Origin: Octopus vulgaris
Taxonomy: Eukaryota
DNA: 64,000 nucleotides
NCBI GenBank assembly: GCA_951406725.2
Contig: OX597815.1
Span: 135,098,001 to 135,162,000 of the forward strand
Direction of reading: 5' to 3'
This document shows positions 10,040 to 62,300 of this stretch, one piece after another; positions within the stretch are counted from its first letter, which is position 1; each line of letters opens with the position of its first letter. The notes beneath the pieces are model-generated. The model made no database searches, had not been told where the DNA came from, and worked only from the letters and a program-made list of their open reading frames with translations. A program made the translations under genes and the position numbers.

Positions 10040-10525
10040 CAAAATATTTTCATGTAAAGTCATATTTAACACATTTAAGTGTATTTGTGTTTGATAAGAT
10101 CTTCCATTGTGGAAATTGTCCAGGGAAAAACTTATCTTCCTAGCCAATATATGTGAAAGCACACTTTGGGCTGTGAATGTCACTGGATCATAGGATTCAA
10201 AAGTTTGTGTGTCTTTTTGCTTCATGAGCCAGGAGAACTAAATCTGTCACTCATAGTGAGATAAGAATAAATTTTTTTTTATTAAAACAGCATACAGTAT
10301 GTTTGCTGATGGGTGTGAAGCTTGGTCAAGCTAGAATAAAATCAATAATGTTGCATGATGCAACACTGAATAAAAAATATTTATGTAAAGTCATATTTAA
10401 CATGTTTGAGCATATTCAAACATGATAAGACCTTCCACTGCAGAAATAACCCCAGAAGAAAATTCTTCTCCAGGACTTGTAGAAAATATATATTTTGGGA
10501 TGTAAACAACATTGCTGGATTGTAG
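10040..10525 (-). mobile_element. 331-nt tandem unit (about 1.4 copies) with degenerate hammerhead-like fold at 10181-10234 (element D)
   Basis: atgtaaagtcatatttaac at 10052 and 10383. Minus strand ctgg-CTcATGA-agc-aaaaag..ctttt-GAAt-cctatgat-ccag. Confidence 0.5.
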
Positions 10526-11143
10526 AAGAGATTCTTTGAATAGAAAGTTCTTTTCAGACATTTTAATCTGAATCTAACACATCTATGTCAAATTTTAACC
10601 TGAATGTGACACACCCATATACAAAGTTATTTACATGCTTGACTGACCTCTAAACAATAACATTGCTCTCATTTCAAACCAAACAAAATATTCCAAAAAA
10701 AATCAACCCATACTCTACAATCATACTTTCTTCCTTCCTTTTTCTGCCCTTCTTCCTATACATCTACATCCCAGCACTACAAACACCAAGCCTGATTTTC
10801 ACATCACATAGCTCCACCTATTCCAGGAAAACCACTTGTCAAAGACTATATATACAGCCAAAGGAACCCAGCTAGATTTTGTCTTAGCTTACATTTAGTA
10901 GTGAGTACAAGCTTCTGACAAAGCTCAAAGAGGTAGAAATGTGGGTCTAGCATTCTCACTGCAAATGGCTGGATAAATTTAGTCTGCTACTGAAATGTTT
11001 GTACTTTTAAACATAGTATGTCCATTGGGGGAGACTATATCTGGATATACTGAAGTTAATTTGCCTTTTCTTGGTATACTTGCATTAAGTATGTTACATG
11101 GATGGTTATTTTAATCTAATATTAATTCTGTTGCATATAACAG

Positions 11144-11177
<34 letters not shown>

Positions 11178-11334
11178 ATTTATATGTGCATATAAGTGAG
11201 TGCCTAAGCACAAGTGTGCATTGTCACATTTATGACCTTACTACAAGACAATCTATAACAAACTCCATCAGCAGCCAATCTATAGACATCTAGTCTTTTT
11301 AGTTTCTAAATTTCTGCTAAATTACCTCATTATT

Positions 11335-11919
11335 GTAAAGTATAATAGCCATCTCGATATGGCTAACCACAGTGTTACTGTAGCTTTTTAGCCCCAGGAG
11401 ATCATCGTCTCCAGCTGGCTTTAGGCACACTATCTGTGCCCTTATGGTATTTACAAAGGGAGGCCATCCCTTTCTCGTAAGCCTAAGTGATACGCACCGG
11501 ACTGACAGTTTTGAGGTTGTTGCCTCATCAACAGGTGGTAATCACCAGATCACGATGAAAGGGAAAGCCTGTATGCAAATATATAAGAGTTTTTCTAGTG
11601 ACTTCTGCCACTGATTTCGAAAAACTGTCTGCAAGCATTATTAAATCTCAGAACGAGATGTAAACAGTAATCGCTTGACAATGTAAAGTATAATAGCCAT
11701 CTCAATATGGCTAACTACAAAGGGGGGTGTTACTGTAGCTTTTTAGCCCCAGCAAATACCATAAGGGCACAGATAGTGTGCCTAAAGCCAGCTGGAGACG
11801 ATGATCTCCTGGGGCTAAAAGCTACAGTAACACTGTGGTTAGCCATATCGAGATGGCTATTATACTCTACATTCTTGAGCGATTACTGTTTACATCTCGT
11901 TCTGAGATTTAATAATGCC
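11335..11919 (-). mobile_element. Retrozyme/Penelope-pLTR-like insertion, 348-nt unit, tandem plus inverted (element A)
   Basis: 12-bp TSD tacctcattatt at 11323-11334 and 11920-11931. Unit restarts at 11683; inverted segment 11754-11918. Confidence 0.85.
11487..11545 (-). ncRNA. Type I hammerhead-like motif (variant core)
   Basis: gtgattaccac-CTGTTGA-t-GAGG caacaa CCTC-aAAA-CT gtc AG-TC|cggtgcgtatcac: stems II and III, a GUC site and an extended, slightly out-of-register stem I. Confidence 0.6.
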
Positions 11920-12557
11920 TACCTCATTATTATCTATACAAAAATCAAAAAATAGAAGTTAAAAAAATAGAAGTTAAAAAAATAAAATATTAAAATTCTA
12001 AAATATTATATATATCATATATATATATATAGCTGGGATTATCGTTTGCATATGTGTATTAGTGAATCTCTGTTTCTTAGCTCTTATAGTTTTCTGAGTT
12101 GATCTAGCTTTGTGTCCAAGTGTCTGATTTTCATATCTGTAACCACATGTGTGAGTCTATAAATGTGAATGTGTATATTTGTGTAAGTATGCATAGTTAA
12201 ATGTGTGTTTACTATGTGGGTGAGTGAATATATATTTATATGTACATCCATATATCTATATATGAGTCAACAAACTAATGTGTATGTGTGTGTGTATCAT
12301 CATCATCATCATCATCATTTAATGTCCATTTCCATGCGGACATGGGTTAGATGGTTTAACTAGAACTGGTAAGCCAGAAAGCTGCACCAGGTTCCAGTTG
12401 GAATTTGGCTTGGTTTCTACAACTGGACGCCCTTCCTAATGCCAACCACTCCAAGAGTGTATAGTGTGTGTGTATATATATCTTTGCACCTATATGTGGG
12501 TCTCTATTACATGTTTGTGGATATAAGGACATGCATGTATATGAGTATGTGTGTGTG

Positions 12558-12628
<71 letters not shown>

Positions 12629-12819
12629 TGTCTGTTTTTATTTCTCTATATGAGTGTCTGCATTTATTCTGGTTTACAAGCTAAAGTAAGTGTTTATATA
12701 CATATTGAATCTCTCAACAGGGGGTTTTCACCCTCAAACTGCATTGTAAGGTATCTGGTTCCACATGTAACAACCTCTATTTAAATGGTTTCCACAATAA
12801 ATATACATTTTGTTTAAAT

Positions 12820-12900
12820 GACTTTGAGAAAGCTATAAGATGTCACATGAACACTCAGCTCTGAGAGCATTGCTTCTTATAGCAGAAACAGCTGAAAGCC
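12820..12900 (+). ncRNA. Degenerate type I hammerhead with long stem II
   Basis: gact-tTGAGaA-a-GCTATAAGA...TCTTATAGC-a-GAAA-CAGCTG-aa-agcc: perfect 9-bp stem II and palindromic stem III. Confidence 0.45.
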
Positions 12901-13083
12901 AATGAAAGTGATTACAGAACACCTACTCTTTTGCTATTTATTAATTTAGATTATGTTTTGTACTCATCTGATACTTAAATCTAAAACATAGGTATATTGA
13001 GTTCTAACAACTGGTTATTATTAGTATTGCTATGCCTTTGAGAAATCATAATATCTATAGATATATACGTATGTGTATGTATT

Positions 13084-13127
<44 letters not shown>

Positions 13128-14454
13128 TATAAATATATATGCATGTATATATATATGTATGAATATATACATGAAGGAAGAAAATAGAAAAAAGCTTAGA
13201 GAAAAGAAAAACAAAAGAGTGGCATATGCTATAGTAAAAGCTCACGAGGATATGTTTTGTAGAAAAATATAGTTAAGAGTTCTCTAAAAGGGTTTTATGT
13301 ACCTTTTAGAATATGATTAGCTGGCAACAATTATGTAAAGCTTGTACATGTATGTCTTACGCATGCACACACACACACACATACGCGCAAACAGACATAT
13401 GGGCTTCAAAATAAGTGTACGCATCTTACTCTCATTAACTGGACTGTTTGTCTTCTTGCATTTGAATGTGTATTTATGTATGTATTATGTAAAAATGATG
13501 ATGATATATGAAAAAATTATCTGCTGCTAATATTTTACATGCGCATGATATATAAGTTACAACCACATGTATATTACATTATTATATTTACACACACACA
13601 CACACACAATGTACTGTATGTATTCTGTCTGTACAAATATACACAATTACACACAGACACATACAGACACACAACATACTCACAATTGAATAGACAAGTA
13701 CATCTATTTTTAATACATACACATTTTGCTCACTCAAAACACGCATACACACACATAAGTCATACCCTAAGAGATAGTCGTAACCATAAGTTAGTGAGAT
13801 TCTACCCCATCCAGTTTGTAAATGTTACATCCATTAACAGATCTAAAGGTGTCCATTAGCTACAGACATACATCAATTTTCACATGAATCTTAATCTGCA
13901 AATACAGCTGTTAATCCCTCATCCAGCATAGAAGATAAAATAGATCTAAACAACCAAATACAGCTTGTGAGATGAGGTAACATCAACAGAAATCTTAACA
14001 ACAACAATATGATATAAGCAATATATGAAAATATATATATTAATACTTCTTGATTTTTTTTCTCTCTCTTTATTCTTGTTGTTTTTAAGGTGAATTAGCA
14101 GAAGTGGTAGAACAATGGATAAAATGCCTGGTGGTATTTAGCATTCTTTCTTTATGATTTGAGTTCATGTTTCAACAGCTCCTGATTTTACATTTTACCT
14201 TTCTGTGATCAACAAAATAAATACCTTTTCCCCTAAATATGTGGTCCTGTGTTTTTGTCAACTTTGCCTTTCATCCTTATAGTGTCAATAAACTAAGTAC
14301 TAGTAGATATTGAAATCCACCAGTGCTTGTCAAAATCTATACTCATGCATCTAAGTTAGAAATTATTATCACTTTAATTACTAGCAGAAAAACTGACCCC
14401 TGGATATATATATATATATATTTTATTCTAATACAAGATTTGAGCGAGGTTGTT

Positions 14455-14730
14455 CCCAGTGCCACTGGACTGGTTCCTGTGCAGGTGGCACATAAAAAAC
14501 ACCATTTGAGCGTGGTTGTTGCCAGTACCGCCTGACTGGCCCTCATGCTGGTGGCACATAAAAGCACCCATTACACTCTTGGAGTGGTTGGCGTTAGGAA
14601 GGGCATCCAGCTGTAGAAACTCTGCTAGATCAGATTGGAGCCTGGTGCAGCCATCTGGTTCGCCAGTCCTCAGTCAAATTGTCCAACACATGCTAGCATG
14701 GAAAGTGGACTTTAAACGATGATGATGATG
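14455..14730 (+). mobile_element. SINE/LINE-tail family S2
   Basis: ggtggcacataaaa..cacc repeats, ggaagggcatccagctgtagaaac and a (gat)n tail. Confidence 0.85.
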
Positions 14731-15679
14731 GCTTAGTTGGCTAAAACTTTGAAGTCATTATCAACAACATTCTTGTATAAGAATATAAGAACAATAAATT
14801 TGTACTCTACTAAAGTATAGAGTATCCCATCAGATTAATGTAAAATTGTTTGCACAATTACACAATATAACTTAATTTACTTATTTATTTCCTGAGTAAT
14901 CACCATTTTTGCAGAAACAGACAGAAAACTAAAATACTGTCTAGTGTAAATTAATCACATCCTCCTCTCCAATCTATTGGGCATATAGGCATAATTTTTG
15001 TTTGTTGTAATAAAAATAAGATAACAAAACAAAGTCAACAGAAGTAATTAACAGTAATTACTTTTAAAGTTTTCCTGTTATGATGGCAAGAGTGGTTGTA
15101 GTTTTGGAGTTAAGTTAGGAAGGGTGAAAAAGGTTAGAGTGAGGGTCATTTGGTTCCAGGTTAGGTTCTTGGAATTTCTCCTACATTTGTAACAGCATTA
15201 AACATGGTAATTTGATTTTATGACTGTCTTCAAATTTTTGAATGATATTTATGATTTGTTTCTAGTGATTTTAGGTTTATAGGTTTTGTATTTATAGCAC
15301 TGATATCTAATAAACTCAACTGAAGATGACAAAAACTACACTAAGTGGAGTTTACTCACTCATAACGTGTGTATATATGTGTGTGTATCATCATCATCCA
15401 GTGTTTTAAATCCAGCTTTTGTCCCCATTAACAGGGGTGGCCAAATCTACCTCAATGCCATAGCAAACACCCTCAACCATCTCACCCGATTTTGGGCATC
15501 CTCCTTTTTCAAACCAAACCTCCCAATCTCCTCTTCTACCTGTCACCCCACCTTTCCCCTGGTCTATCTCACTTTCACGCTCCATTTACCTCAAACTCAA
15601 TCACCCTCCTCAACACATGGCATACCACCTCACTCCATTCGCCATATGTATATATATATATATATAAAGAGTAAAAGTC

Positions 15680-15995
15680 CCCTTTGGTTATGAATGACCA
15701 TGGGATTGCACTTATAAAATTACCCTCCAAGGCACAAAATGTTTAAGGAAGACCAACAGTTGCCCATGCATACCAGCCTCCCCTCTCCACACCACTGTTA
15801 TCTAAGGGAAAGGCAAAGGCTGATACAGCTTGGCACCAGTGACATCACAACTCATTTCTACAGTCAAGTGAACTGGAGCAACTTGAAATAAAGTGTCTTG
15901 CTCAAGAACACAACACACAATCCAGTCTGGATATTGCACTCACTACCTCATGATTGTGAGTCCAGCACTCTAACGACTGAAGCATTTGCCTTCAC
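15680..15995 (-). mobile_element. CORE-like SINE family S4b
   Basis: Homologous to 19745-20055 (+) and 30525-30855 (-). Confidence 0.8.
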
Positions 15996-16045
15996 TATAT
16001 ATGCATGTGTGTGTGTATTTGTATGTAAATTTTCATACATATAAA

Positions 16046-16076
<31 letters not shown>

Positions 16077-18008
16077 ATATATATATATATATATATATGC
16101 ACATATATACATATATATATGTACACATGTAAATATACATATAGCAAATTAAGACTTATTCGAGGTAGGAATTTTACAGCCTGATGGTTTTCTTGCTACC
16201 AACATTTACCAGCTTTTAACTGTTTTGCAAGTAATGGATTTTGTATGCTAAAGGTCTTCAAGAGTGCAGGACAAGTGAACACAATATTAAAAACATTCAT
16301 GCACATTTGTATGCATGTGGAAGCATGCACACACATGTGCACACATGCGCGTACACACACAACGCAGTCGGCCTGGATACTACACTCAAATGGAAAATGT
16401 ATAGAAATGTGATCATGTTCACTAGAATGCATAGGTCTACTCAATTATGCTGCCCCAGAATTAAAGAATGACAAATTGTTTTATAATTCATTCAAAACAA
16501 ATAATCCATTAAATAAATCTCATGAGCAAATAAAAAATTTAGACTGATCTGAACATTAAGACAGTTATTTATACAATAAATAGATATGGTTATGATAGTG
16601 TATCCCTCTTATATACATACATATATATATGTAAGTAAATGCACGTAGATATGTAAAAGAAATGCATTAACAATATGAAGTTCAAAACAAAGTAAAAAGC
16701 TTAATTAAGCTCTGCTACTTGTAATTGGAAATGGAATGTTCTGAAATATACACCAATAGTAACTGTTACATAATTTTCATTTTAAATTAAAAGTTAATCT
16801 GTAGCAAATGTGAGAATAAATTAATTTCCTGCTTAGTTTTCTGTTAGTAACTTATAATTTTAAGTAATGTTCAGGGTACAAAATTCAAGTAAACAGAGCA
16901 TCATGGCAAAAACAAAGAATGTAAATGGATCTTTGGGGAGAGAATGCTGTGTATACAGAAATTTTGTGGAGGTATAATGAATAAAATTTCCTTATTTTTT
17001 ATCTTTGTAGTAATAAAATACTGATATAAAACATATACATAATAAGCATGCTAAAAATGTCTTAGGTTATTTTAATCATAGAAGTACAGTGTACCATTAA
17101 TGTAACTTAAGTCATTTGAATATTTAATTAAAGCATGAAATGAGAATTTCCGTTCCTGTTTAATTTTCTTCATTCGTAGGATGAGTATTAAGTAATACAG
17201 ATATTTACATTCTACAGATATTTTCTGTTTCTGATTGGTTTTGAAATAATTACACACATTTTAAACAGGATATAAAGTTATAATAGGAAATGTTTTCAGG
17301 ATGGCTTCATACAAACTGAAACATTTCATTTACAGATTGCTATACTTTCAGACACCCTTGGACAAAAATGATACCAAATTATTTTAAATATGAAATTTTA
17401 AAAAAATATGAAAAACAAAAAATCAGAAAAAACATCTAATTACATATTATGTGGCAAAACATTCCACATATCATTTGCGTGTGAATAAATAAATTCTTGG
17501 CTTTCAGTCAAACCTTGTGCTTTCATGCTTTGATTAATTAGAAAAACATATGACTATGTCTGGTTATATATGTATATACATTGGTGTAATTCTGCATTAA
17601 ATTTGATTTTGTTAATAGAAACCAGCATGGCATCTCTGAGTACAACCATCATATACATGTAAAACAGGTTTTGAATAGTAAAGTGAACCTGGTATAAATT
17701 ACAGTTTTACATATCTTTTTAAAATTTCAATTGTCTCCCTTGCAAGTTTATTACTGGTTTGTGTTTATTTTACCAAAAGTGATTGGGATATTCTTAGCAA
17801 TCAAGGTCTTGACAGTTTTACACAATGACAGTTCCATTGAAAACAATTCTGTGTGTGTGTATTTGGCAAGTCTAAGATGGCATTGTTGTTTTTTTTAAGT
17901 TACCAAACTGAACAAAAGGAAATACATTAGAAAAAGTAATTTTAAGATAAAAAAAAAATCCTTATCTGCCCTGTATACAGTGAGATCTGGAATGAATATT
18001 TGCATCTC

Positions 18009-18231
18009 TTATCATTTATCTTTCACTTGTTTCAGTCATTAGACTGTGGCTATGTTGGGGCACTGCCTTGAAGAATTTTTAGCCAAATGAATTGACCCTT
18101 GTACTTTTTTTTAAGCCTGGTACTTATTCAATTGTTCTCTTTTGCTGAACTGCTAAGTTATAGGGACATAAACACACAAGCACCAGTTGTCAAGCAGTGG
18201 TGGTGGGTGACAAACACAGACAAAAAGACAA

Positions 18232-18262
<31 letters not shown>

Positions 18263-18428
18263 CACACACAATGGGCTTCTTTCAGCTTCAGTCAACCAAA
18301 TCCACTCACAAGGTTTTGGTTGGCCCGAGGCTATAGTAAAAGACACTTGCCTAAGGTACCATGCAATGGGACTGAATCCAGAACCAAGTGGTTGGGAAGC
18401 AAGCTTTTTACTACACAGCCATGCCTGC
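18009..18428 (-). mobile_element. SINE family S1
   Basis: Full-length reverse copy of 61685-62100. Confidence 0.9.
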
Positions 18429-18555
18429 ATGTTTTTCACAGGTCTAAGCAGGTTCAGAAAAATTATACTGGTCGCTGTGGAGTATATGATAAGAGAATAA
18501 ATGCTCTTTTTTATGATGATCCCATGTTCAACACACTTGGCTTATTGGTAGAAGA

Positions 18556-18602
18556 CATTCAGGGTCATTGGTGTTTCAACATGTGTCTCATCAGTCAGAA
18601 GC
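18556..18602 (-). ncRNA. Type I hammerhead motif C1
   Basis: gcttctga-CTGATGA-GAC acat GTT-GAAA-caccaatgac|cctgaatg: intact CUGAUGA and GAAA, mutated cleavage site. Confidence 0.7.
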
Positions 18603-18754
18603 AGTAGGAACTCTGAATCTAAACAAAGCCAGCAGCTTTGTTTCTACTTTAGTGCACAAATTGTTTGCTGCTTGGTAATTATATCTGCCAAGTAATACAA
18701 AATTGTTGTATGCACCATTTACAGTGAGATCAAGAATAATTATTCATATTTTTA

Positions 18755-19116
18755 GGTATGGCTGTGTCATAAGAAGCTTGCTTCCCAACCACATGGTTCT
18801 AGGTTCAGTCCCACTGTAGCACCTTGGGCAAGTGTCTTTTAATAAAGCCTCAGGCCAACCTTGTGAGTGGATCTGGCTGATGGAAATTGAAAGGAGCCCA
18901 TGTCTTTGTATCTGTGTTTGTCACCCCATCACTGCTTGACAACAGGTGCTGGTGTGTTTATGTCCCTGTAACTTAGTGGTGTGGCAAAAGTGACCAATTT
19001 GAATAAGCACTAAGCTTTAAAAAAAAATAAGTCCTGGGGTTGATTTGCTTGACTAAAACTCTTCGAGATGGTGCTCCAGCATGGCCGCAGTCAAATGACT
19101 GAAACAAGTAAAAGAG
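18755..19116 (+). mobile_element. SINE family S1
   Basis: ggtatggctgtg...ggtgctccagcatggccgcagtcaaatgactgaaacaagtaaaaga. Confidence 0.9.
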
Positions 19117-19231
19117 TAAATCTAAGCAGATTTGGATGCAAATATTTTGGTTGCTGTAACATATGTCACAGAATAAATTCTGCCATTTGTGATGACAGTG
19201 TGTTGAACACACTTGGCTCATTGATGCATGT

Positions 19232-19281
19232 CATTATGGGATACTGGTGTTTCAATATGTTGTGTCTAGTAAGCCAGAGGC
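19232..19281 (-). ncRNA. Type I hammerhead motif C2 (degenerate)
   Basis: gcctctgg-CTtActA-gacacaacatatt-GAAA-caccagtATC|ccataatg. Confidence 0.55.
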
Positions 19282-19566
19282 AACTGGAATTCTGAGCTTA
19301 AAACAAAGTTGCAGGCTTTGTTTATGCTTTCTGTACACAAATTGCTTGCTATCAATGCTTATTTCTGCCAACCAATAAAAAAACTGTTATGTGCACTATG
19401 TTAAGAATATGGAAATAATCATTCCAAATCTTGATGTAATCAGTGCAAATTTTATAATTTTTTTTTTTCTGTTGGTTGGCAGATATAGGCATCAATTAGC
19501 AAATAATTTGTTCACTGAAGGTATAAACAAAGTCACTGGCTTTGATTAGGTTCAAGAGTTTTGGCT

Positions 19567-19614
19567 GCTTCTGGCTGACAAGACACATGTTGAAACACCA
19601 GTATTCCAGAATGC
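19567..19614 (+). ncRNA. Type I hammerhead motif C3 (in the inverted copy)
   Basis: gcttctgg-CTGACaA-GAC acat GTT-GAAA-caccagtATT|ccagaatgc; stem I ttctgg/ccagaa. Confidence 0.7.
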
Positions 19615-19744
19615 TGTGCAGCAATAAGCTGTCATCCTAAAGGGGAGTAGTTATTCTCCTATACAGTGACCAGTGTATTTTGCATCTCAAGCTGCCTAGA
19701 CATGTTAAAAATAAATATGTTAATAATCATTAATTTTAAAATAA

Positions 19745-20055
19745 GGTGCATGGCTCAGTGTTGAGCTTACGATTGTGAGGTTGTGAGCTCGAATCCTGGA
19801 CCAGGCTGCGTATTGTGTTCTTGAGCAAGAAACTTTATTTCATGTTGCTCCAGTTCACTCAGCTGTAGAAATGAGTTGCGATGTCACAGGTGCTAAGCTG
19901 TATTAGCCCTTGCCTTTCCCCTGGTGAGGGGAGGCCGGTATGCATGGGCGACTGCTGGTCTTCCATAAAAAAACAACCTTGCCTGGACTTGTGCCTGTGA
20001 GGGTAATTTTCTAGGTGCAATCCCATGGTCTATGTCGTGACCGAAGGGTGTCTCA
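19745..20055 (+). mobile_element. CORE-like SINE family S4b
   Basis: tRNA-like head tggctcagtg...ctcgaatcctgg followed by the tgtgttcttgagcaagaaactttatttc core. Confidence 0.8.
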
Positions 20056-28639: not shown

Positions 28640-29045
28640 GGAAATAGTAGTTGTGATACCTGTGCCGGTGGCACATAAAAAGCACCATCCGAACGTGGCC
28701 GTTGCCAGCACCGCCTCGACTGGCTTCTGTGCCGGTGGCACATAAAAAGCACCATCCGAACATGGCCGATGCCAGCACCGCCTTGGCTGGCTTCCGTGCC
28801 GGTGGCACGTTAAAAGCACCAACCGATTGTGGCCGATACCGGACTCCCCTGGCACCTGTGCAGGTGGCACATAAAAAGCACCCACTACACTCGCGGAGCG
28901 GTTGGCATTAGGAAGGGCATCCAGCTGTAGAAACACTGCCAGATCAGACTGGAGCCTGGTGCAGCCCCTGGCTTCCCAGACCCCGGTTGAACCGTCCAAC
29001 CTGTGCTAGCACGGAAAACGGACGTTAAACGATGATGATGATGAT
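28640..29045 (+). mobile_element. Young S2 element with four internal ~67-bp repeats
   Basis: gtgc(c/a)ggtggcac at 28662, 28729, 28796 and 28858; CpGs retained; (gat)n tail. Confidence 0.9.
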
Positions 29046-29460
29046 GAACAAATATCTACATTTAAACAGAACACAGGTGCATACTTAAAGAAAACCAGAG
29101 TTCCACCTTTTTTTTTTAATTTCTAGTCTTTTTGAATCAGGAATGAAACTTGTAGGTAAATATAAACATTAGCAATGTTTTTATTTTCTCATTATAGTTT
29201 ACATTTCTTCAATATCAAGAGTTGTTCTGCTACATATTTTCAAACAAAGGCAGTCATGTCACCGTGTTAATCATCTATGGGTAAACTCTGATGATCCAGT
29301 TAAGTACATTCAATTAATATGTAGCTAATGGCATATTAACATGCAACATTTCAGATTGTAACTTTTGTTTGTAAATTTCGATTGAGCAAACCTATGATCA
29401 AATGTGCTGTAACCAGGAGGATATCTTTTAAGGGTATTCAGAACTACATTGTCCCATATA

Positions 29461-32731: not shown

Positions 32732-35221
32732 CATCCAATCCATGCCAGCAAGAAAAACTGAAATTAAATGATGATGATGATGATATATGCATAATATGTG
32801 TGTGTGCATGTAATACAGTTCAGTATGGGATAAATCCATAGATTTTAGCCATCACTGCATTTATAAATTAATTAAATATATCATAATTTACTTGATACGT
32901 GAATATATATTCCGTTTTCTTTTTGATTTCTTTTGCAGTCTTAAAGGAATATTATGTTACATTGGAGTAAACATTTTGTGCATGCATGTCACGTGTAATA
33001 ATTCAGTTAGGTGGTAGTGTACTAAATGACATATAAAAAAAAATTCTTAATGAATTGAAATTTGCCACTTAATTGCAGAAAGAAACAAAAACCTGGTAGC
33101 AATTGTTAACGAATCTGTTAGAAGAAGGGAGATAATTTTCAGCTGTTAAGAATTGATTTCTTTAATTTAATTTAATTTTTAGGGTTATTTTTGTGCTTTC
33201 TATTGTGAGATCTGTATGTCTAGATGTGAATCTGAATGTATAAGTCAATATGCAAATGCATCATTGCATGCTTCTGTGTGTGCATGCATGTGCATACGTG
33301 TGCATGTATGTGTACATTTGTTTGTATGCGCCTGTGTGAAATTACAAAACTTTAAATTGATAAATCAGCATTTGCTGCTCAGAAGTGAAAATTCAGAATT
33401 TCATGTATACAAAGGAATATAATTTCCTATTTATGGATGCTGCCACCAGTACCGTAATCATCACTATAATGATGGCTATTAATGCGTCCAATCCCTATCA
33501 CTTCTCATCACTCTCCCAATTACAGCAAATATTCCATTAAAACACATAAACAAGAAATACTGTGAATGAGGAATTTCAGATAGAAACCTTCTAATTTGAA
33601 TTTTTTCAGTTTTTTTTTAAACATTCTATAGCTTACAACATTATGTATGCGTGTATTTGTGTGAGTGTGCACATTTGTGTGTATATGTAGGACACTTATC
33701 TTGTAGGTATAATTTATGTAATTTACCTAAAGAATTCTGATATAAATGAAGAGCAATGAGACGCATGGCAAAAAGTAAATAAATACATAAATAAAAGATA
33801 TTCAATAATCCACCTTATGTAATTATGATTTCACACATTGGCTCAAAGACAAATATTTGAAGGGGAGGTTTAGCTTGGAGAGATGGGAAGTCAATTGCAG
33901 CGAGATTTGGAGTCAGAATGAAAATGAAACATTACGTAACAAAATACTGAAATGTTATTCACTAATCCCTTGCTCTTCCAGTTTAAATCATAATGATTTC
34001 TATAAGACACAAAGCCAAAAGCTCAAGTTATGCATGCTATAAATAGCTATAAGCTGCTGTTCCATTTATGGTCAAGAAAATTTGGTAATCACAGATGGGT
34101 AATTACAGGGTTAAAATCTGGTGACAGTTTGGAGTAGATTCTGATGGATCAATTTTTAGTGAGACCAGAGGATAAACTGCCAAGTCTAGTAGTGGGAGGG
34201 CACCGAATTCTACTGTGACATAGATTTATTTAGAAAAGGAATACTAAGAATAATGCCTGCATAGCAGACAAGTGGTATGAAGCAATCTATTTGACAATAC
34301 AGGCAATTTTTTTACCTTTAATTCTTCTCAATGTTTATTGATTGGCATAGTCAAATTAACTGATGGTCTCAATATCATATGCTTTTAGTCTTTATTTGGC
34401 AACCAAAGGTTATATGCAACAGATTAGGAGATTAAACATTTTGAAACTACTCATATGAATGAGCCATGTGAGGGAAGTTCCATAAACAGCTTAGTTACTG
34501 TCAGAGTATTAGAATGTATAAAGAATACGGGTCAGTTGAAGATGAAGTAGAAACAAATGCTCACATTTGAAAAGATATTAATTTTTCTTACACTGGAAAC
34601 AAGCAGTATACCAGGGCTAGATATGAGTTGCAAAAATATCATGGAAAATTTCATCAAGGAACAGATGTGCTAGAAGCTGTCCTTTTAGAAATCTGATTAA
34701 TTTCAGAATTCAAAAATTTTTAAGTCATCTTGAGGGAAGCAAATTTTCTACTTCAAAAGCAGAACTATAAGCTTGAAAATATTTCATAGACATTTCCAGT
34801 GTATAGACATGATATATGATTGAAGTCAAAGCTAGAGTTTTATATCCTAAGAGGCTAGTTTGTATATGGGCAAGGGAGATTCCATTTATGAATGAGTCAA
34901 TAATACTTTGGAGATGCATGGCTTAGTGGTTAGAATATTGGACTCATGATCGTAAGATTGTAGTCTTGATTCCTGGACCAGGCAATGTGTTGTGTTCTTG
35001 AGCAGAGCACTTCATTTCATGTTGCTCTAGTCCACTCAGCCATAGAAATGAGTACCACTAGTGGAGGTGCATCGCTTAGTGATCACAGATGTAAACAAAT
35101 ATGCAGACACACCTGCACACTCCTATACAAAGAGGATGATCTTTCAGTTTCTGTCATCTAAATCTGTACATATGGCTTTTATATGTATGTGTGTGTACAT
35201 TCACTTATGTGTATACATATT

Positions 35222-35508
35222 TCATCATCATCATCATCATTTAATGTCAGTTTTCCATGCTAGCATGGGTTGGACGGTTCAACCGGGGCCTGGGAAGCCA
35301 AGAGGCTGCACCAGGCTCCAGTCTGATCTGGCAGTGTTTCTACAGCTGGATGCCCTTCCTAACGCTAACCACTCCGTGAGTGTAGTGGGTGCTTTTTACG
35401 TGCCAGGGGAGGCTGGCAATGGCCATGATCGGTTGGTGCTTTTTACGTGCCACCGGCACGGAAGCCAGTCAAGGCGGCACTGGCATCAGCCACGTACGGA
35501 TGGTGTGT
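35222..35508 (-). mobile_element. SINE/LINE-tail family S2
   Basis: Matches 28640-29045. Confidence 0.88.
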
Positions 35509-35754
35509 TGTAGGTGTACACACACATATATATTAACATACACAAACATATATATGCACATACACACAAATATATATGTACCAGCAGCTAAACTCGGTTT
35601 CACCAGGTCGGTTTGGATGATGTGGCAGTAAAACCTGCTCTTGTAAGCATTCGACTTGCTTGGGTATGCTTATGTTAAAAAACAATTTTAGAGTTGAAAT
35701 GCTGTTTGGTTTATTTTGTTTGGCATACAATTTTCATCATCCCACTACCAAGTA

Positions 35755-38671: not shown

Positions 38672-39025
38672 ATCATCATCGTTTAACGTTCGTTTTCCAT
38701 GATGGTTTGACTGGGGACTGGCAAGCCAGGAGGCTGCACCAGACACCAATCTGATCTGGTAATGTTTCTACAGCTGGATGCCTTTCCTAATGCCAACCAC
38801 TCCCGAGAGTGTAGTGGGTTTCCTTTTTACGTGCCACCGGCATGGGAGCCAGTCAGGCAGCACTGGCATCAACCATGTTCAGATGGTGGTTTTTATGTGC
38901 CACTGTCATGGGGAGCCAGTCAGGTGGCACTAGCAACAACCCACGCATGAATGGTGCCTATTGCATGCCACCAGCATGGGAGCCAGTCAGGTGGCACTGG
39001 CATCGGCCACAACTACAAATTCCAT
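38672..39025 (-). mobile_element. SINE/LINE-tail family S2 with three internal repeats
   Basis: catgggagccagtcagg repeated three times. Confidence 0.85.
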
Positions 39026-48756: not shown

Positions 48757-48758
<2 letters not shown>

Positions 48759-52498: not shown

Positions 52499-52712
52499 TT
52501 AACTCTTTCATTACTGTATTTATTTTGAGATGCTTTGTATTTCTTTCAATTACTTTAAATATAACAAGGAATTTAGTAAAATAACTTGGTTATCATTAAG
52601 CTAGTGTTAGGAACATAAATTGTGGAAGATTTTAACTGAAAACTTATGAAAACAAGACATTTGTATTCAGAACCAGAGCCGGTTTCAGCCAGGTTGGTAA
52701 TGAAAGGGTTAA
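52499..52712. mobile_element. piggyBac-type MITE
   Basis: TTAA-ctctttcattac ... gtaatgaaaggg-TTAA. Confidence 0.85.
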
Positions 52713-52932
52713 ACATTGTAATTAGCAGTATCAGTAACTATAACAAATGGCTACAATATATCATAGTAACAATATCAAGTAATGCATCCACACTTTAACA
52801 GCAATCTATTAAACTTCTGAAACAGTTTTCCTAAACCTGTTACTGAAAAATCAAAGACAGAAACTCAAAACGTCAGAAACTGTACACTTAAAACAGTTAG
52901 GACCAGAAAACATTACTACACAAACCTACACC

Positions 52933-53160
52933 TTAACCCCTTAGCATTTAAACCAGCCATATCCAGCCAAAATAATCAACCCGTTTTATCTTCAGTCTGG
53001 CCAGATTTGGCCTCTTGCACTTACCCTACAATATTATTCTAAAAATAAACAACTATGTCATTGAAATCTCAAAGCTACAAAGTAATACATGACTAATTCA
53101 GATCAATATGAATAAATAAGCTTTACATTTGACAGAGAAATCTGAAGGCTAAAGGGTTAA
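52933..53160. mobile_element. piggyBac-type MITE, paralogue of 44519-44750
   Basis: TTAA-ccccttagcatttaaac...ctaaaggg-TTAA; collinear similarity along its length. Confidence 0.85.
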
Positions 53161-53760
53161 ACTACCTGTGATTGATCTATGGCAATGTGTGAATAATATT
53201 CTCAAGGTTAACATTTACTTTTTTGAGTTCATTTCTATGCTCTCTGGCCAATCCAATACTTGACCACATTAAAGGAGGTTAAAGTCACTGAAAACAACCA
53301 ATACACCACTACATTTTGAGATATAGTAGAAAATTGGTTGGGTAAAGAGAAAAATTACAAAATTTGTCAAAAAAAAAAAAGGGAGAGTAATGCATAAATA
53401 CAACTTCTGAGTAATATAGTTTCATTATTTCTTTATTATATTTGTTGAAATTGCACTTTAATAAAACACCTTAATCAAAGAAATATAATTCTGTAAACCT
53501 TAAGAAACTGGTAGAGAAGAAAAGGTTACAAGACAAAAAGTTGTTGATTATGAAGAGTAAGGCTAAAATTCATTTTAAAGCCAAAATCTATGTTATTTCT
53601 AGAAAAAGTTTGAAAAATCTTGACAAAAAGAATCTATTTCTGTAAACCAAGTTACAACTGGGACAATAGTAAAAAACTTATGGGGTAAAAAAGAGTGTTT
53701 GAAGAGCCATATATCTGTGATGAAGGAATCATGAAACATACCCAGTCACTTGATGTACAT

Positions 53761-54132
53761 GGTGGAAGCACTCCGTTGGTTACGACGATGAGGGTTCTGG
53801 TTGATCCGAATCAACGGAACAGCCTGCTCCGTAAAATTAACGTGTAAGTGGCTGAGCACTCCACAGACACGTGTACCCTTAACGTAGTTCTCGGGGATAT
53901 TCAGCGTGACACAGAGAGTGACAAGGCCGGCCCTTTGAAATACAGGTACAACAGAAACAGGAAGTAAGAGTGAGAGAAAGTTGTGGTGAAAGAGTACAGC
54001 AGGGATCACCACCATCCCCTGCCGGAGCCTCGTGGAGCTTCTTAGGTGTTTTCGCTCAATAAACACTCACAACGCCCGGTCTAGGAATCGAAACCGCGAT
54101 CCTATGACTGCGAGTCCGCTGCCCTAACCACT
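53761..54132 (-). mobile_element. Young SINE S4a-related element
   Basis: TSD ttgatgtacat at 53750-53760 and 54135-54145; tRNA-like head; CpG-rich. Confidence 0.88.
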
Positions 54133-54599
54133 ATTTGATGTACATAACTGAAATGTGGCTAAAGAATAACATCCTTTAATGGAAACAGTTAAGCCTCCAA
54201 TAGCACCAAGTCACAATTGCTTCAAGGAAACAATTTCTCATGTTCTTATGATTTACTGCGTAAAAATGGCAAACTCACAAATGTAATATTGTTGAAACTT
54301 TAACCTGAAGAGTTGCAAACTACCTGCAATGAATAAGTAAGACTCACATTGGAATATTGCTCACATATTTTTATTTGACTACATTCACGGGAAGGTCAAT
54401 CAGCTGACTGGCAGATTCACTCACATGCTACAAGCTACAACTCACAGAAGCAGCAATATACACATTTTCTTTTTTTCTACTACTGTAATGTTACCAACTC
54501 CTCTATCTACCCTTTTGACACATGGCCAACTGATACACCAGTTTCACACTTTAACCCCACCCAATCCTAAATACCTTTTCTATTCAATTTAGAAGAAAT

Positions 54600-55400
54600 T
54601 GCTCTATCACTCTATCGACCAAACTATCAGATCTTGCATATTGCTGGTTATAAAGCACCCTCATCTTTCCTTCCGTTGATTGTGTCCTTCTTTTCCATTT
54701 GGGCTCAAATTCTTTGACTACATCATTTTTTCCATTACCTTGGAGGCTTTTTGAGAAGTTGCATCTGGTCTTTTGGATACCACTCAGCAACTGCAACAGG
54801 TCAAGCTACTATCATCTGAGAGCATGGTGGCATACCTGGCCCAGCAGAACTTGTATTTCCAGTATTTTGGAGTTACATAATTCAATTTGCTCCATTCATG
54901 TTGGATGTGCTCCAACAATATTCTACACATGGAGCTTTTCATGGCTCTCTATTTTGTAGCCAGTCAGTGGCCATTGCTCTTTGTACTAGCCATGTCTCAC
55001 TTGCAAACATGTAGGGGTGCAGACAGAATGCTGTTGTTGAAAAAATTGTCATACAGGGGCTTTGTTCAGCTGTGCTTTGAGGATATCCTTAATCAAAACA
55101 AATGCCTTCCATTCTGCTCTTAATCTGCATGAAATTTCAACATTTATGTCTCAGCATATACTTACTGTCTGTCTTAAGTAGATACATTCCTTCACCTCCT
55201 CAGTTTCATCACTTTGTGACTTTGTGCCATGTTTTTGAACAGCATGTATTATGTATTCATGCAATAGAACAACTGTATGGAAGAAACACCTTTTCGAACT
55301 TCTTCTCCGCCCATACTTTTCTTGTGAATTTCAGCTTCAAGAAGTTCAAAGTGTACATAAGCTTCATTCATCTGAAAAGTAAGGTGGGGCCCTGAAAATG
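54600..55400 (-). mobile_element. RTE LINE 3' fragment
   Basis: Remnants FNNSILSAP..ASETW, KFCWA, VAEWYPKD and WKNDVVKEF. Confidence 0.7.
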
Positions 55401-55627
55401 TTTTAGGTGCTGTTTCGCTTCCTCTGATTAATTAAATAGCAAAAATATATGTGCAAATACATACAGATACACATATGTACTGGAATAGAAATCGAGTGTG
55501 TGTCTGTGTGTTTGTGAGAGAGAATAAGCAGCTACTGAATGTATATACACATACACACAGATCAATCTGTGTGTATGTGTGTGTGAGCAGATCCATCCTG
55601 TATCTGTAACATTCTGTAGCTACTTAC

Positions 55628-55687
55628 GTTATCAAGAGGAATTCCCTTCATCTTTGAATATTTGGTTACCACTGTAAGATCTGTTGT
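55628..55687 (-). CDS. Candidate 60-nt phase-0/0 exon, TTDLTVVTKYSKMKGIPLDN
   Basis: gtttaaatttAG|ACAACAG...GATAAC|GTAAGT. Only one frame is open and the length is divisible by 3. No homology recognised. Confidence 0.35.
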
Positions 55688-55754
55688 CTAAATTTAAACA
55701 TATCACTTCCTTCAACATCCTTTTCTCTCTCTCTTCTAAATACATACACACGCA

Positions 55755-55820
55755 CATATATGTGTGTGTGTGTGTGTGTGTGCGCGCATGTGTTTGCGTG
55801 TATGTGTGTGTGTATATATC

Positions 55821-55855
<35 letters not shown>

Positions 55856-55938
55856 TTATTTATATATATATATATATATATGTGTATATGTGTGTATTTA
55901 TATATATATATATATATATATGTGTATATGTGTGTATT

Positions 55939-55973
<35 letters not shown>

Positions 55974-55978
55974 GTGTG

Positions 55979-56029
<51 letters not shown>

Positions 56030-56030
56030 G
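55755..56030. repeat. Compound TG/TA microsatellite
   Basis: Directly visible. Confidence 0.97.
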
Positions 56031-57092
56031 CACAAAAGTTCCCAACTATAAATTCCTGTTTCATATATCTCTTTTCCTCCCATCCTTACAACCAAATTGG
56101 CTTCCACTCTCTTCTTCCCAATCTCATACAAACAGTACCTTCCTCAATTAGTATAGTGCTCTCTCTACCCATCACTCATTTACTATCTCTATTTCCTTTC
56201 CACCACACAACCACTTTTACACAAATCTGCTTTTTGTCTTACTAGCAATAATTTTCCTCCATTTATGCGTTACCATTTTTCACTCTCTCTTTACTTGTTT
56301 ACTTCAAGCTCTCCTGTTTCTCTTCCCCTCAAAGTTTACCAATTTTTTTGTTTTTCTGCTGGCATCTTGTTTTTCACTTTCTCTCTTTTCCAGATTCCCT
56401 CTTTCTCACATTCTCTCCGTGGATTCCATGCTCTTGTTCTTTATTCCACTTGTTTATTTGCCTTTGTACCCCTCTCTCACCTTTTCTCTTCCACCTGTCT
56501 TTATTATATTAATAGAGAAGATAGAAGGAAGAACCACTATTTGGATACAAATACAAAAAAGGGTAGTGCTTAAAGCTTTTCTTTTCGTGTTTGTTTGTTC
56601 GTTGATTAGGCCCAGTTCAACCTATGATTAAAGGTATTCACACTAGGACTGCAACATCTTTTGTCCTGGGCACCATAAATTCACGTTCAAAATATCTACT
56701 CAATCTTTCTTTTCTAAGATGGTAGGCTGTTATTTGAAGAAGATGTAGCTAAATTTTTTTACTGATCAAATGGCTCTCTACAAGCTTCTTGAGGGGAACC
56801 ACATTGTAAAGAAAAGTGGATAAAGTTAATATTGATTAATTCATTGCGCCTCACATACAGTTTAAAGGATGATTCAAAATTTAAAAATACATACAAATGT
56901 GTGTGTGTGTGTGTGTGTGTATGTGGTTGGTGTTAAGAACCATGCCAAAACAAGCAGTGGAGTTTGGTGCAGTTCTCTGGCTTGCCAGTTCCTGTCAAAT
57001 TGTCCAACCCATGCCACATGGCAAAGAGACCTTAAATGATGAGGATGTATGAGTGCATGGATATGTATGTATGTGTGTGTATATATATCTAT

Positions 57093-57147
<55 letters not shown>

Positions 57148-57365
57148 AAAAAGGGCATCAAGCCATAGAAACCATGCTAAATCAGACTGGAGTGTGGTGC
57201 AGCTCCTCAGCTTACCAGCCCATGTCAAATCGGCCAACCCATGCTAGCATGGACAACAGATGTTAAATGACGATGATGATGATAATATATATATCAACAC
57301 CATTTTAAAGCCCACTTTTCTATGCTTGCATAGGTTTGGTTGAGCCGGATTTTTTTTAGTTAGAT

Positions 57366-57680
57366 AGGTGCAGGAGTGGCTGTGTTGTAAGTAGCTTGCT
57401 TACAAACCACATGGTTGCAGATTCAGTAGATGGAAACTGAAAGAAGCGCGTCATTTGTGTATGTGTGTGTTTATGTGTCTATGTTTGTCTCCCTACCATC
57501 GCTTGACAACTGATGTTGGTGTGTTTACATCCCGTAATTTAGCGGTTTGGCAAAAGAGACCGATAGAATAAGTATTAGGTTTTCAACGAATAAGTCTTGG
57601 GATTGATTTGTTCGACTAAAGGCAGTGCTCCAGTATGGCCGCAGTCAGATGACTGAAACAAATAAAAGAATAAAAGAATA
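57366..57680 (+). mobile_element. SINE family S1 with internal deletion
   Basis: ggtgcaggagtggctgtg head and taaaagaa tail. Confidence 0.85.
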
Positions 57681-57759
57681 CCGTTCTTGTCACCAACCTT
57701 CATCCATTCTCAGCTAAAGCAATATTTCCTCATGACCAGATATGTTCTCGCTAAGCTTG

Positions 57760-59010
57760 CTCAAACTTCACTTTTGAAAGTGATATCTCTGCATACATAA
57801 TTTCCTTTCTCCCCATTAATTATTTAGACATCAGCAACAAAAAAATTTTCAGTTACTCAAGCTGAAAGTCTCCTGGTTTTTCTGCTGCTTTCTAAGTTCA
57901 TCAAACTAAGTACATACTGATAATACTTCTTCCTACATCAGACATCCGTCTCACTTCACTCATCTCAGAAGTCATTTGGTCTGGCAACTCGGAGGCTCAC
58001 AACTCTATTTGGTTTTCACACTTATTCTATACTGTTATCGCTGGTGCAGCAACTGGATCTTTTGCAATCCCTACTGTTCTACACCAACTAGTTTCATTCC
58101 CTACATTTCCTGATGACCAACACATATTTTACCACTTAGTTACTTTTAAACATAACCTCTGTCAGACCAAAACTGTCTTGGCACATAGAGAATTATCTAA
58201 TCGCTACTTTATCACAACTATCCACCACACATTGGAATACTACACAATTTCTTGGAGCCTATGGCATTTCAAGTAAACTAACTGAGCAAAATTTCACTAA
58301 TTTTATGCTAGCTTTCATTGGTAGCATATGTGATATGTTCCTGTACATCCCATACATAACAAAAACTCACAGCCTTAATCCCCACACAGGCCATAGCTCT
58401 GCTGCAACAGTTCAGGCAAGAATCATACCCTACAACGCTTGAAGAAAATAACCTATACTTACAAATTGGTTGGCTCTTAAAAACAGCACTTTATCTCTGA
58501 AAATTCAAACTGCAAAAGGAGCCTTCAAAGTTCTCTCACCATCCAAACTGCAGCTGATACTTCTGGTCTTTTGCTGAAAGGATTTCCATCAACTTTGTGA
58601 CAGGCTCCTTTCCTCCCCTTCTTATTCATGATAGTTGCATGAGCATTGCTCCTAGAGAGCAAGTTTTCACATTTGCTGCCTACTTTGTATCTACTTTACA
58701 CTAGATTTCCTTCTAAACTATTCCCCTCTACTCTACCATGGAAACATACATGCCAAATGTAAAAGTATCTCTGATCACTTCAAAGGCCATTAGTTTCAAC
58801 TATTTCTTATATATTACCCAGACATAATTACCATACTTGCCAAAATCAGAATTTTTCTTTCTACAATGATGTAAAATAGTCTTTACAAACATGCTATATG
58901 GTGTATCTTATTTGAAGAAGGGTAACTCCTTGAGCCTACCAACTACTGTCCTATCATATTCTCCAATATCTCAAAGATGTTGAAAGCATTCATGCACACA
59001 GTCCCTTACT
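57760..59010 (+). mobile_element. Decayed Jockey/CR1-group LINE (endonuclease to start of RT)
   Basis: Remnants LDL...DDQH and KG..EPTNYCPI..SNISKMLK. Confidence 0.55.
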
Positions 59011-61457
59011 CCAGATCAAATTAGCAGAAAAAGAATTAAAAATACAAGACTATATTATTGACTGTGTTCTTCCTTTTTGGAACAGTAGGACTGTGATCTG
59101 AGTAAAATTTGTTAGTTATTGCTAGCAAGTCAAAGAAGTGGGCAGATGTTCCCTCATTGGGAAGTGACCAAAATAGAAATACAACCCTAACACTGTACAG
59201 TATATATTTCCCTTCTTCAACATTCTGTATGTTGCATTGTACTAGAGTCAATAGAAATAAATACCATTAATAAACTGGGTCAATTCAATTGAATATACAC
59301 CTTCTCTTTAAGAAAAAAATTGTTTTGTCTAGTCAAAAGAAATCAATATTATAATAAACATTACACCACTACTGGGTTGAAGACTAGAAATAATCAATCT
59401 AATATCATTCATGGCTGCCATTAGTGCATTACATCTGAATTCTTGTCCAACTATTACATTCTTTCCTTTTGAAATTCATTTTGTTTAACCTTCAACCCGA
59501 GATTCACTGAACTGAACTGTTATTATTTCTTCAATTAATACGACTAATTGTCCACTTTTAACACTTTAATATCTCTATTAATATTCTATATTCACTGGCA
59601 CTTTCAAGATCACAGCTTGTGGCAACACCAGGTTGATGACTACTTCTAAATATAGCAACATGAATTGTAAAAATTTCATGCTAATGAATTAACCGTTTCA
59701 CAGTTTGCAATTGGCAGCAGTGGTAGGCAGCACCATTTAACAAATTGTAGTACCAAACACAACAATTAATGTGATATACTTTTCATTGTGTGTTAACCAT
59801 TTTACAAAATATAGCTTCACACATTACATTGCATTTTTGCTTCCCTATCACCATATTTATAGTCTGCATTTTCTACCTTGTTATCTTCGGTTTATCCGTT
59901 CTGTAATTGGTGGTTAAAACTGATGGACGCTAAAGGTAAAAACTTGCAGATGTACGAGTGCAAAATTAAAATGGTTAACTATAGTTTAAATATGCTCCAA
60001 ACACATCACTGTGTATTCCTTTTGTAGACATTTAATTCTACAAGCATCAATTCACCTAGTTGTTAAGAAAAGATTCCAGAACTTTCTGGAAATGTTAACA
60101 AGGAATCACTGATACCTTAACCAATATCACTTTTCCTTTCAGACATAATTCCATGAAGCCATAAAACATCCAAATCATTAATTTTCATGAGTACCTTGCA
60201 ACATTGATTTTCACACTCGTAATACTGGGAAGAAATCTGTTCACTGATAGCTTGGTTTCAGATACCAGGTACATAGTCATTGAGAAATTTTATATAATTT
60301 GGTCCCACAGTTACTTCATTGTCTACCTCATGAGTGTCCAAAATAACATCATTTTGTGCTTAGGTGTCTAACAAAGTTACTTTCAATGATCAACTAATTT
60401 CATTTAAGATAAGTATTTTTTCTTCTAGATATGAAATGCAATGTTTCAACCAGATGACAAGGATAAGTTTTTCACCGCTACAGCAAATTCTTACCTCGGT
60501 TGTCTTAAGGAATACATTTCTGCACATTATGGATTTTAAATTTCCACATTAGAGAGGATTAAATCCCAAATGCAGAAGACTATAGTTTATTTTCCAGATG
60601 TCAGATGCAATTTGCCTCCAGACACATAACTGCTTTTTCTACAGCACACACACAAACATACATACAGGTATGTATGTATGTATACACACACACATATGAA
60701 GGATTAGCTATGCCTTTGGGAAATCATCTAGGAGAGATATGGAGTGTAAATTCTTGTGTGTGCAGTTTTATGTAATCTCAGGAATTTCTGCATATGGTGA
60801 CAGTTAACTATGTACACATATGGGGAGCACATACACTTTATATGATTCTAAACATACACTTATCCTTCTACCTAAGTAGAGAGGATTGATATCACTTTCT
60901 AATTTTTTTTTCCCTCTCCACCTCTCAGGCTGCTTGTGTGCGATAAGGTTCTCATGAGGGCATTTACTTTTTACTCTCAGTTACCAAAATTACTAAAAGT
61001 AAATCTTCTGCAAAACCATTAAAGTATTGGTAGTGTTGCATCTCTGATGGAAAGTGATTTACTAACAAAAAACTTAAAACAACATAACATTTTCAGATAA
61101 ATGTGAATATGATGAAATCATATAAAATCTACCTAATAAACATATATTTAGTCTCACAGTGAAAACATTACGTACAAGTTACAGACTCTTCGGTAGATAA
61201 GAATGTGAGGGATCTGCTGATGTGTTTCATCTTCTTAAAACTTGCACCATATAAATGATATTGTACTATATTAATAGTATGAGTGGCTAATTTGCAATTT
61301 TACAACCTAAAGGCAGAAATATATACATCACTAAAGTGAACAACAGCACTAATTAGCACTAGCATTGCTAGAAATAAGAGTCAAAACAACTCAATAGTCA
61401 CAAAAACCACTATCTTAATGAGCTGACAAAGGAGACAAGCCCCCTACAGTCACAGAT

Positions 61458-61523
61458 AGAGCTATATCACTGATGATTTTGCATTCTGATGTTTAACGCA
61501 TCCTAAAGCTCATCAGTAGCTCT
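61458..61523 (-). ncRNA. Type I hammerhead ribozyme fold (G12A)
   Basis: AGAGCTA-CTGATGA-GC tttag GATG cgttaaa CATC agaat GC-aAA-ATCA tcag TGAT-A|TAGCTCT: 7-bp stem I, 4-bp stem III and an AUA site. Confidence 0.8.
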
Positions 61524-61684
61524 CACCGCACCTAGGGTTAAACTCATCTCGCCTTGTCAGCTTATAAGATCTCTGTTGAAATCGTAAGCTGATTTTGTAA
61601 ACAGTAGTGTGAGAATTATAAATAATGTGGGTGGCTAATTTGCAATTTTACAACCTAAGGGTAGAAATATATACGTCATATATA

Positions 61685-62100
61685 GGCGCAGGAGTGGCTG
61701 TGTGGTAAGTAGCCTGTCTACCAACCACATGGTTCCGGGTTCAGTCCCACTGTGTGGCACCTTGGGCAAGTGTCTTCTACTATAGCCTCGGGCCGACCAA
61801 TGCCTTGTGAGTGGATTTGGTAGACGGAAACTGAAAGAAGCCCGTCGTATATATGTATATATATATATATGTATGCGTGTGTGTGTTTGTGTGTCTGTGT
61901 TTGTCCCCATAGCATTGCTTGACAACAGATGCTGGTGTGTTTGTGTCCCCGTCACTTAGCGGTTCGGCAAAAGAGACCGATAGAATAAGTACTGGGCTTA
62001 CAATAGAATAAGTTCCGGGGTCGAGTTGCTCGATTAAAGGCGGTGCTCCAGCATGGCCGCAGTCAAATGACTGAAACAAGTAAAAGAGTAAAAGAGTAAA
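61685..62100 (+). mobile_element. Young full-length tRNA-derived SINE S1
   Basis: A-box-like tggctgtgtgg, B-box-like ggttcagtccc, CORE-like ccttgggcaagt and a (taaaagag)n tail. Confidence 0.92.
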
Positions 62101-62255
62101 GAGAGTCACTAAAGTGAACAAGGGCACTAATCAGCACACAAAGTCATTGGTTATCTAGCTCTGTGACCAAAGGGGGCTTGTCTTCCTTGACAGCTCATTA
62201 AGGTAGTGCTTTTTGTGGCTATGGAGTTGTTTTGACTTTTATTTCTAGCAATGCT

Positions 62256-62300
<45 letters not shown>

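Follow-up and report, generated by a model that had tools for sequence, protein, structure and literature searches.

Four short, non-coding tandem units in a stretch of 64,000 nucleotides of the Octopus vulgaris genome (contig OX597815.1 of assembly GCA_951406725.2, G000:C2:135098001-135162000, part of a 2.8-Gb assembly; hereafter, the window) represent four dispersed families, A to D. We consider these families, with good probability, to be animal retrozymes of the kind without long terminal repeats (non-LTR retrozymes), that is, short non-coding elements with one type I hammerhead ribozyme per unit that are likely copied by the reverse transcriptase (RT) and GIY-YIG nuclease of Penelope-like elements (PLEs). 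Judged by its sequence, family B is a non-LTR retrozyme, and A, C and D would work in the same way, two intact tandem hammerheads being known, among the four, from B alone; none of the window copies contains two or more complete tandem hammerheads. An earlier, sequence-only reading of the window had proposed several families of PLE-mobilised ribozyme RNAs, and this proposal is partly borne out by the dispersal of the families, by PLE-type insertion marks and by the lack of an attached open reading frame (ORF).

Unit families and their hammerhead ribozymes

A periodicity scan and self-alignments recovered four non-coding, partial head-to-tail tandems of 1.2-2.1 units each, as first described (1.2-2.x copies), with unit lengths of about 331 (A), 356 (B), 319 (C) and 347 nt (D). 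The GC content of the units is 35-43%, and the self-alignments revealed no LTR-type layout. A genome search placed copies of all four units on many contigs, and the possibility of single-copy local duplications can thus be set aside. First-look candidates, which are not copy numbers, amounted to 4341 for B, 1730 for D, 276 for A and 147 for C, of which 40 per family were scored. The aligned top copies showed a mean identity to the column majority of 95% in B, 86% in D, 79% in C and 75% in A, which makes B the youngest family. Profile-vs-family searches found no homology among B, D and A/C; between A and C there was a single weak cross-match in each direction (E about 1e-4 to 1e-3), so that the supposed lack of mutual homology holds for all but this pair.

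The aligned copies of each family yield a type I hammerhead on the minus strand of the window. The ribozymes assigned to this strand thus exist at the family level, although every window copy is damaged and a strict hammerhead descriptor, with a false-positive level of 2 matches in 803,644 shuffled bases, matched nowhere in the window. Likewise, an Rfam scan of the window returned no hammerhead family and only microsatellite noise among the 150 of 214 matches listed. In family C, the CUGAUGA core is conserved in 18-27 of 28 copies per column and GAAA in 20-28 of 28, with 304 of 360 helix cells paired. Family D has its core in 22-30 of 30 copies per column (G12 in 17/30), 552 of 623 helix cells paired and a stable four-pair helix III, and family A has its core in 17-27 of 29 copies per column, with a poorly resolved helix II. 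Intact copies of D occur at L047 and L035. Family B departs from the CUGANGA/GAAA consensus with compensatory stems that had been anticipated: the columns of A and C read CUGAUGA, but the core of B is UUGA(U/C)AA (conserved positions in 28-30 of 30 copies), that is, a U3-A8 core.

Compensatory changes were nonetheless found in B. Among 12 copies of B and its sister subfamilies, hand-picked for intact cores, 94.3% of 192 cells were paired and 5 of 16 pairs had changed on both sides, including U3-A8 to C3-G8, the latter being the core pair of sister subfamily B2. In the extended helix I of B, 7 of the 29 predicted pairs showed changes on both sides, and natural B monomers folded better than all shuffles (z of -4.3 as linear and -4.5 as circular molecules). 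A, B and C have a short, palindromic helix III, a feature that the literature takes to imply dimeric cleavage.

The genome contains more hammerhead-tandem families than A to D. Subfamily B2 (L234-L263; period 357-360, 2076 first-look candidates) has an end, tail and inversion pattern like that of B, and both B2 and another sister subfamily (L139:9-75) have hammerhead helices and a core pair unlike those of B. Further hammerhead-bearing partial tandems lie in the flanks of other loci, at L009:1893-2566 (period 399), L241:2631-3099 (period 304) and L184:1-795 (period 533), each with two descriptor-intact motifs on one strand, and at L293:1287-1989 (period 325, related to family C). A separate set of Rfam Hammerhead_1 matches of about 108 nt (L265, L266, L269, L278 and L284) has a long helix II insert and a core in common with abundant 42-nt matches.

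Insertion anatomy and template form

The anatomy of the insertions was assessed on 62 distinct B insertions, pooled from three queries with duplicates and a 10-unit array (below) excluded. At the 3' side, 39 of the 62 terminate at one fixed site (the end) and 21 about 47 nt further (the tail), while 5' ends are distributed over the whole unit, i.e., truncation is variable. Start points are thus not circularly permuted, as 60 of 62 insertions belong to one of these two end classes, which also occur, less sharply, in A, C and D. The optional tail measures 35-48 nt across the families. An outer inverted arm is present in 28 B insertions, of which 20 carry the tail on exactly one arm, three on neither and none on both (five are irregular). 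Target-site duplications (TSDs) of 10-16 nt flank 14 of these 28 and 3 of the 34 non-inverted insertions (17/62 in total), compared to 20 of 3782 mismatched flank pairs with a duplication of at least 10 nt. In the window copy, the inverted arm seemed closer to the terminal unit than to the one upstream, but this is not general (4.0, 4.3 and 4.7% mismatch across 18 triples). Family D ends (L031-L060 flanks) often adjoin (TA)n or (CA)n microsatellites; microsatellite-adjoining ends have been reported for some PLE clades as well.

Published endonuclease-bearing (EN+) PLE insertions combine a partial tandem, an inverted 5' copy, a tail at one end and 8-10-bp TSDs with the inverted structures (PMC3846280, PMC8557442). 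The anatomy of A to D is this very anatomy (PMC8557442, PMC3846280).

The B insertions also bear on the form of the template. The cleavage site of B lies at column 183 and the fixed end at column 356. Had a linear monomer, cut by the ribozyme, served as template, copies would be no longer than about 173 nt and 5' ends would accumulate at the cut. However, none of the 62 insertions has its 5' end within columns 178-190, and the cleavage site is crossed by nearly all copies. Because copies run through this site, the template must have been a circle or an uncut multimer, in line with the circular or multimeric template first suspected; between the two, we consider the circle about as likely as not. 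Within one insertion, tandem units have 85 of 190 rare variants in common (4.3 expected), and inverted arms 69 of 170 (3.4 expected); shared variants were counted, rather than pooled mismatches, since some alignment rows were misaligned. Such sharing, far above expectation, indicates a single template, or a single homogeneous source, for each insertion.

The mechanism that we propose would begin with the transcription of tandem sources by read-through. Given the short palindromic helix III, transcripts would then cleave themselves through paired (dimeric) hammerheads. In family B, the internal end signal lies about 173 nt downstream of the cleavage site and would be the point at which reverse transcription is primed. 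The template, be it a ligated circle or an uncut multimer, would extend across the cleavage site as well as the unit junction.

A candidate source is a 10.2-unit B array at G000:C4:13620759-13624380, in which the dimer query identified ten intact hammerheads. Its units are 98.9-100% identical, it ends at the fixed site as other insertions do, its TSD is short and AT-rich, and it is located inside an inverted-repeat element. All variants common to the units of the 10-mer (L324:3262-6881) lie within about 45 nt around the end signal of the element. Several intact B dimers exist besides this array. Contigs assembled from runs not recorded as RNA cover B with a profile that resembles the one from the large run X17 and has no start or end peaks; they are uninformative on expression.

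Competing explanations and the relation to Penelope-like elements

The most specific form of our explanation is that A to D are circular-RNA retroelements, and that a PLE RT primes their circles at the internal end signal, which lies half a turn from where the ribozyme ligates them, with the intact 10-mer as a live source. We advance it tentatively, at a little less than an even chance. Alternatively, and with a comparable, not quite even claim to being correct, the units might be internally deleted PLEs (mini-PLEs) that arise from linear uncut transcripts, with tandems made by template jumps or dimeric sources and with a hammerhead that functions as in ordinary PLEs, no stable circle being formed. 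The form of the template is the only difference between the two explanations. Autonomous PLEs show identical ends, tail, inversion and TSD, most copies have one hammerhead with a weak helix III, so that their transcripts would stay uncut, and non-autonomous head-to-tail elements from Chlamys that have no canonical hammerheads exist (PMC8557442), all of which would fit mini-PLEs. Seamless junctions and shared rare variants in many independent insertions, however, demand some way for linear copies to regain length, and the extended helix I with its compensatory changes closes the ends of the monomer.

Much less probable, in our view, is that the units are pseudo-LTRs (pLTRs) of autonomous PLEs, seen alone through 5' truncation. 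The genome does hold many PLEs, among them a GIY-YIG group whose 781-aa RT+GIY-YIG ORFs include intact ones, and two further groups (the three presumably being, from their motifs, Neptune-, Hydra- and Poseidon-like). Each of the three sampled groups has a hammerhead-like motif of its own close to the 3' end, and the U3-A8 core of B recurs in the GIY-YIG group. Yet the 5' neighbour of a unit is a further copy of that unit or unrelated flank, not an ORF, and translated searches with two natural PLE proteins found no sampled A-D copy attached to a PLE ORF and no PLE protein match in the window, in conflict with the possibility that copies always attach to PLE RT ORFs. The PLE protein matches near units are separate nested fragments that lie on the opposite strand or downstream, or have unrelated DNA in between. 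Conversely, A-D profile matches at the sampled PLE loci are separate nested insertions only, and no profile matched the sampled pLTRs. The pLTR explanation is thus largely refuted in our sample. A, B and the GIY-YIG group have a TTTACA motif at the 3' end in common, but it is not long enough to point to a partner.

Two of the PLE groups deserve description in their own right. Many intact 781-aa RT+GIY-YIG frames occur in the young family of the element at L151:906-4590; a separate 359-aa open frame lies ahead of this frame, and the 3' end of the element bears both a minimal U3-A8 hammerhead and a tail of its own. A very abundant group (L174-L203; 16926 first-look candidates) is marked by a linker rich in asparagine; helix II of its hammerhead is long, and 26 of 30 loci have a descriptor-intact motif.

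We regard it as highly improbable that the units are local tandems, either satellite-like or produced by recombination, in which hammerhead-like sequence occurs by chance, given their dispersal, fixed ends, TSDs and covariation and only two descriptor matches in all the shuffled sequence (803,644 bases), even though the window copies offer no intact motif and the 10-mer bears signs of later duplication. These signs are the variants of the 10-mer that recur in non-adjacent units: the array grew at least partly after insertion, or holds assembly noise, and we do not accept it as proof of one rolling-circle event.

This recurrence is one of several observations that weigh against retrozymes copied by PLE enzymes. 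Only 13 of the 62 B insertions, and 1 of 22 in the least biased set (3'-half query), span two cleavage sites, which means that most insertions cannot yield a cleaved monomer. The three PLE groups sampled (30+20, 30 and 30 loci) yielded no autonomous element whose terminal repeat is homologous to a unit, and a TSD was found in only 2 of 30 D loci. Further, all samples consist of top-scoring matches, and the copies used for covariation are few in number and share descent, so that they represent few events. Rfam Hammerhead_1 gives no score on the intact B array, and is thus not a useful test for B, while the 30 Rfam-match loci fetched contained no A-D hammerhead and only more distant C- or D-like relatives.

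The window copies and their place among known elements

The copies in the window are dead insertions. Unit A (10020-10530, minus strand, period 331) comprises 1.5 units, is 5'-truncated and has a 3' end of the tail class; self-alignment and family-end mapping found neither an inverted arm nor a TSD. Its hammerhead (10183-10236, minus strand) is broken, with a CUCAUGA core and GAAA lost, as opposed to CUGAUGA...GAAA in the family columns. Unit B (11323-11931) has a period of 348 in the window copy, as opposed to about 356 across the family, and is bounded by a perfect 12-bp TSD, TACCTCATTATT, at 11323-11334 and 11920-11931 (read on the plus strand). Its forward arm (11334-11756, minus strand) consists of a full 348-nt unit (11334-11681), which reaches the fixed 3' end, and 75 nt of the unit upstream of it, and its hammerhead (11484-11547, minus strand) is broken by a 2-nt core deletion and G12A relative to the UUGA(U/C)AA core, a U3-A8 variant, of the family. 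The inverted 5' arm (11754-11919, plus strand) terminates in the tail of about 47 nt (11875-11919).

Unit C (17937-19744) has a period of about 316-319 once two inserts, presumably like short interspersed elements (SINEs), are removed; in self-alignment, the raw period is 676, from which a 362-bp insert is to be subtracted. Plus-strand TSDs of 14 bp at 17937-17950 and 19731-19744 agree at 13 of 14 positions. Between them lie the forward arm (17952-19406, minus strand; about 2.1 units, with the tail at 17952-18009, a unit at 18444-18754 and a partial unit at 19122-19406), later interrupted by the SINE-like inserts at 18012-18428 and 18759-19120 and containing two degraded hammerheads with cores near 18590 and 19275, and the inverted 5' arm (19406-19730, plus strand), which is about one unit long, with a tail-less end and a degraded hammerhead near 19570-19612. 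Unit D (61270-62258, period 348) has a forward arm (61270-62137, minus strand) made of a 348-nt unit, with the tail end at 61270, and about 90 nt of the upstream unit, the latter divided by another presumed SINE-like insert (61679-62098); the inserts in C and D are later copies of one common repeat. Its broken hammerhead (61455-61524, minus strand) has a long two-part helix II, with G12A in the window copy, its inverted 5' arm (62130-62258, plus strand) terminates in a (TA)n run, and no TSD was found for it in the window. The inverted 5' copy ascribed to A, B and C is therefore present in B (11.3 kb) and C (18.4 kb), as well as in D (61.3 kb), but was not found in A. SINE-like copies of about 400 bp start at 18012, 18759, 29459, 57361 and 61679 of the window, and another abundant dispersed repeat, with internal 66-67-nt tandem units, occupies 14438-14730, 28660-29048, 35182-35516 and 38672-39010.

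Animal non-LTR retrozymes have been described as 150-450-bp hammerhead repeats expressed as circles in coral, mussel and axolotl, with PLEs proposed as helpers (PMC7229834), the mussel repeats being 350-390 bp (Cervera & de la Pena 2020, PMC7229834). Families A to D resemble them (PMC7229834) in being non-coding 320-356-nt units with one type I hammerhead per unit and a GC content of 35-43%, and in having tandems up to a 10-mer, TSDs longer than 4 bp, a well-folding monomer and co-existing PLEs. They differ in that most copies have fewer than two units and in being known here from sequence alone, and the fixed end, tail and 5' inversion are not known to us from that account (PMC7229834). A 2020 review reported that no motif pointed to the helper element of retrozymes (PMC7761336). 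Li, Clavereau and Pollet concluded, from pLTR homology and co-occurrence in 31 vertebrates, three insects and one anthozoan, that non-LTR retrozymes derive, as non-autonomous elements, from PLEs (bioRxiv 10.64898/2026.07.22.740005). Our conclusion on origin is the same, and monomers, dimers and multimers occur in both studies; the basis here, however, is insertion anatomy, and no homologous pLTR was found in the three PLE groups sampled. Unlike EN+ PLEs (PMC3846280, PMC8557442), A to D contain no RT/EN ORF and their whole repeating unit is 320-356 nt, while B and D have a tail of about 47 nt, as opposed to 30-40 nt in those elements. The minimal hammerheads of PLEs include the U3-A8 natural variant in Schistosoma Cercyon (Cervera & de la Pena 2014, PMC4209133); B has the same U3-A8 core, and the short palindromic helix III is likewise in common, whereas the long helix I of B, the stable four-pair helix III of D and units not attached to an ORF set our families apart.

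The class as such is not novel, having been described in mussel, coral and amphibians (PMC7229834; bioRxiv 10.64898/2026.07.22.740005). We found no description of an octopus or cephalopod retrozyme in the literature, although the supplement of PMC7229834 may list cephalopod motifs, and the giant squid genome paper reports 235 Rfam hammerhead matches. Hence, these are real elements of a known kind, apparently undescribed in this lineage, and the extension of the class to it is modest. The helper enzyme of animal retrozymes and the form of their template are open questions in the literature, and what is added here is a counted PLE insertion signature on retrozyme-type units, together with a natural intact 10-unit array. 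With this array and intact PLE ORFs in one genome, cleavage, circularisation and trans-mobilisation become directly testable. If the circular-RNA explanation is true, the fixed end, one-sided tail and inversion would be the genomic record of PLE enzymes copying retrozyme circles, and ordinary PLEs may likewise transpose through ribozyme-made circles, since their tandems and tails look alike.

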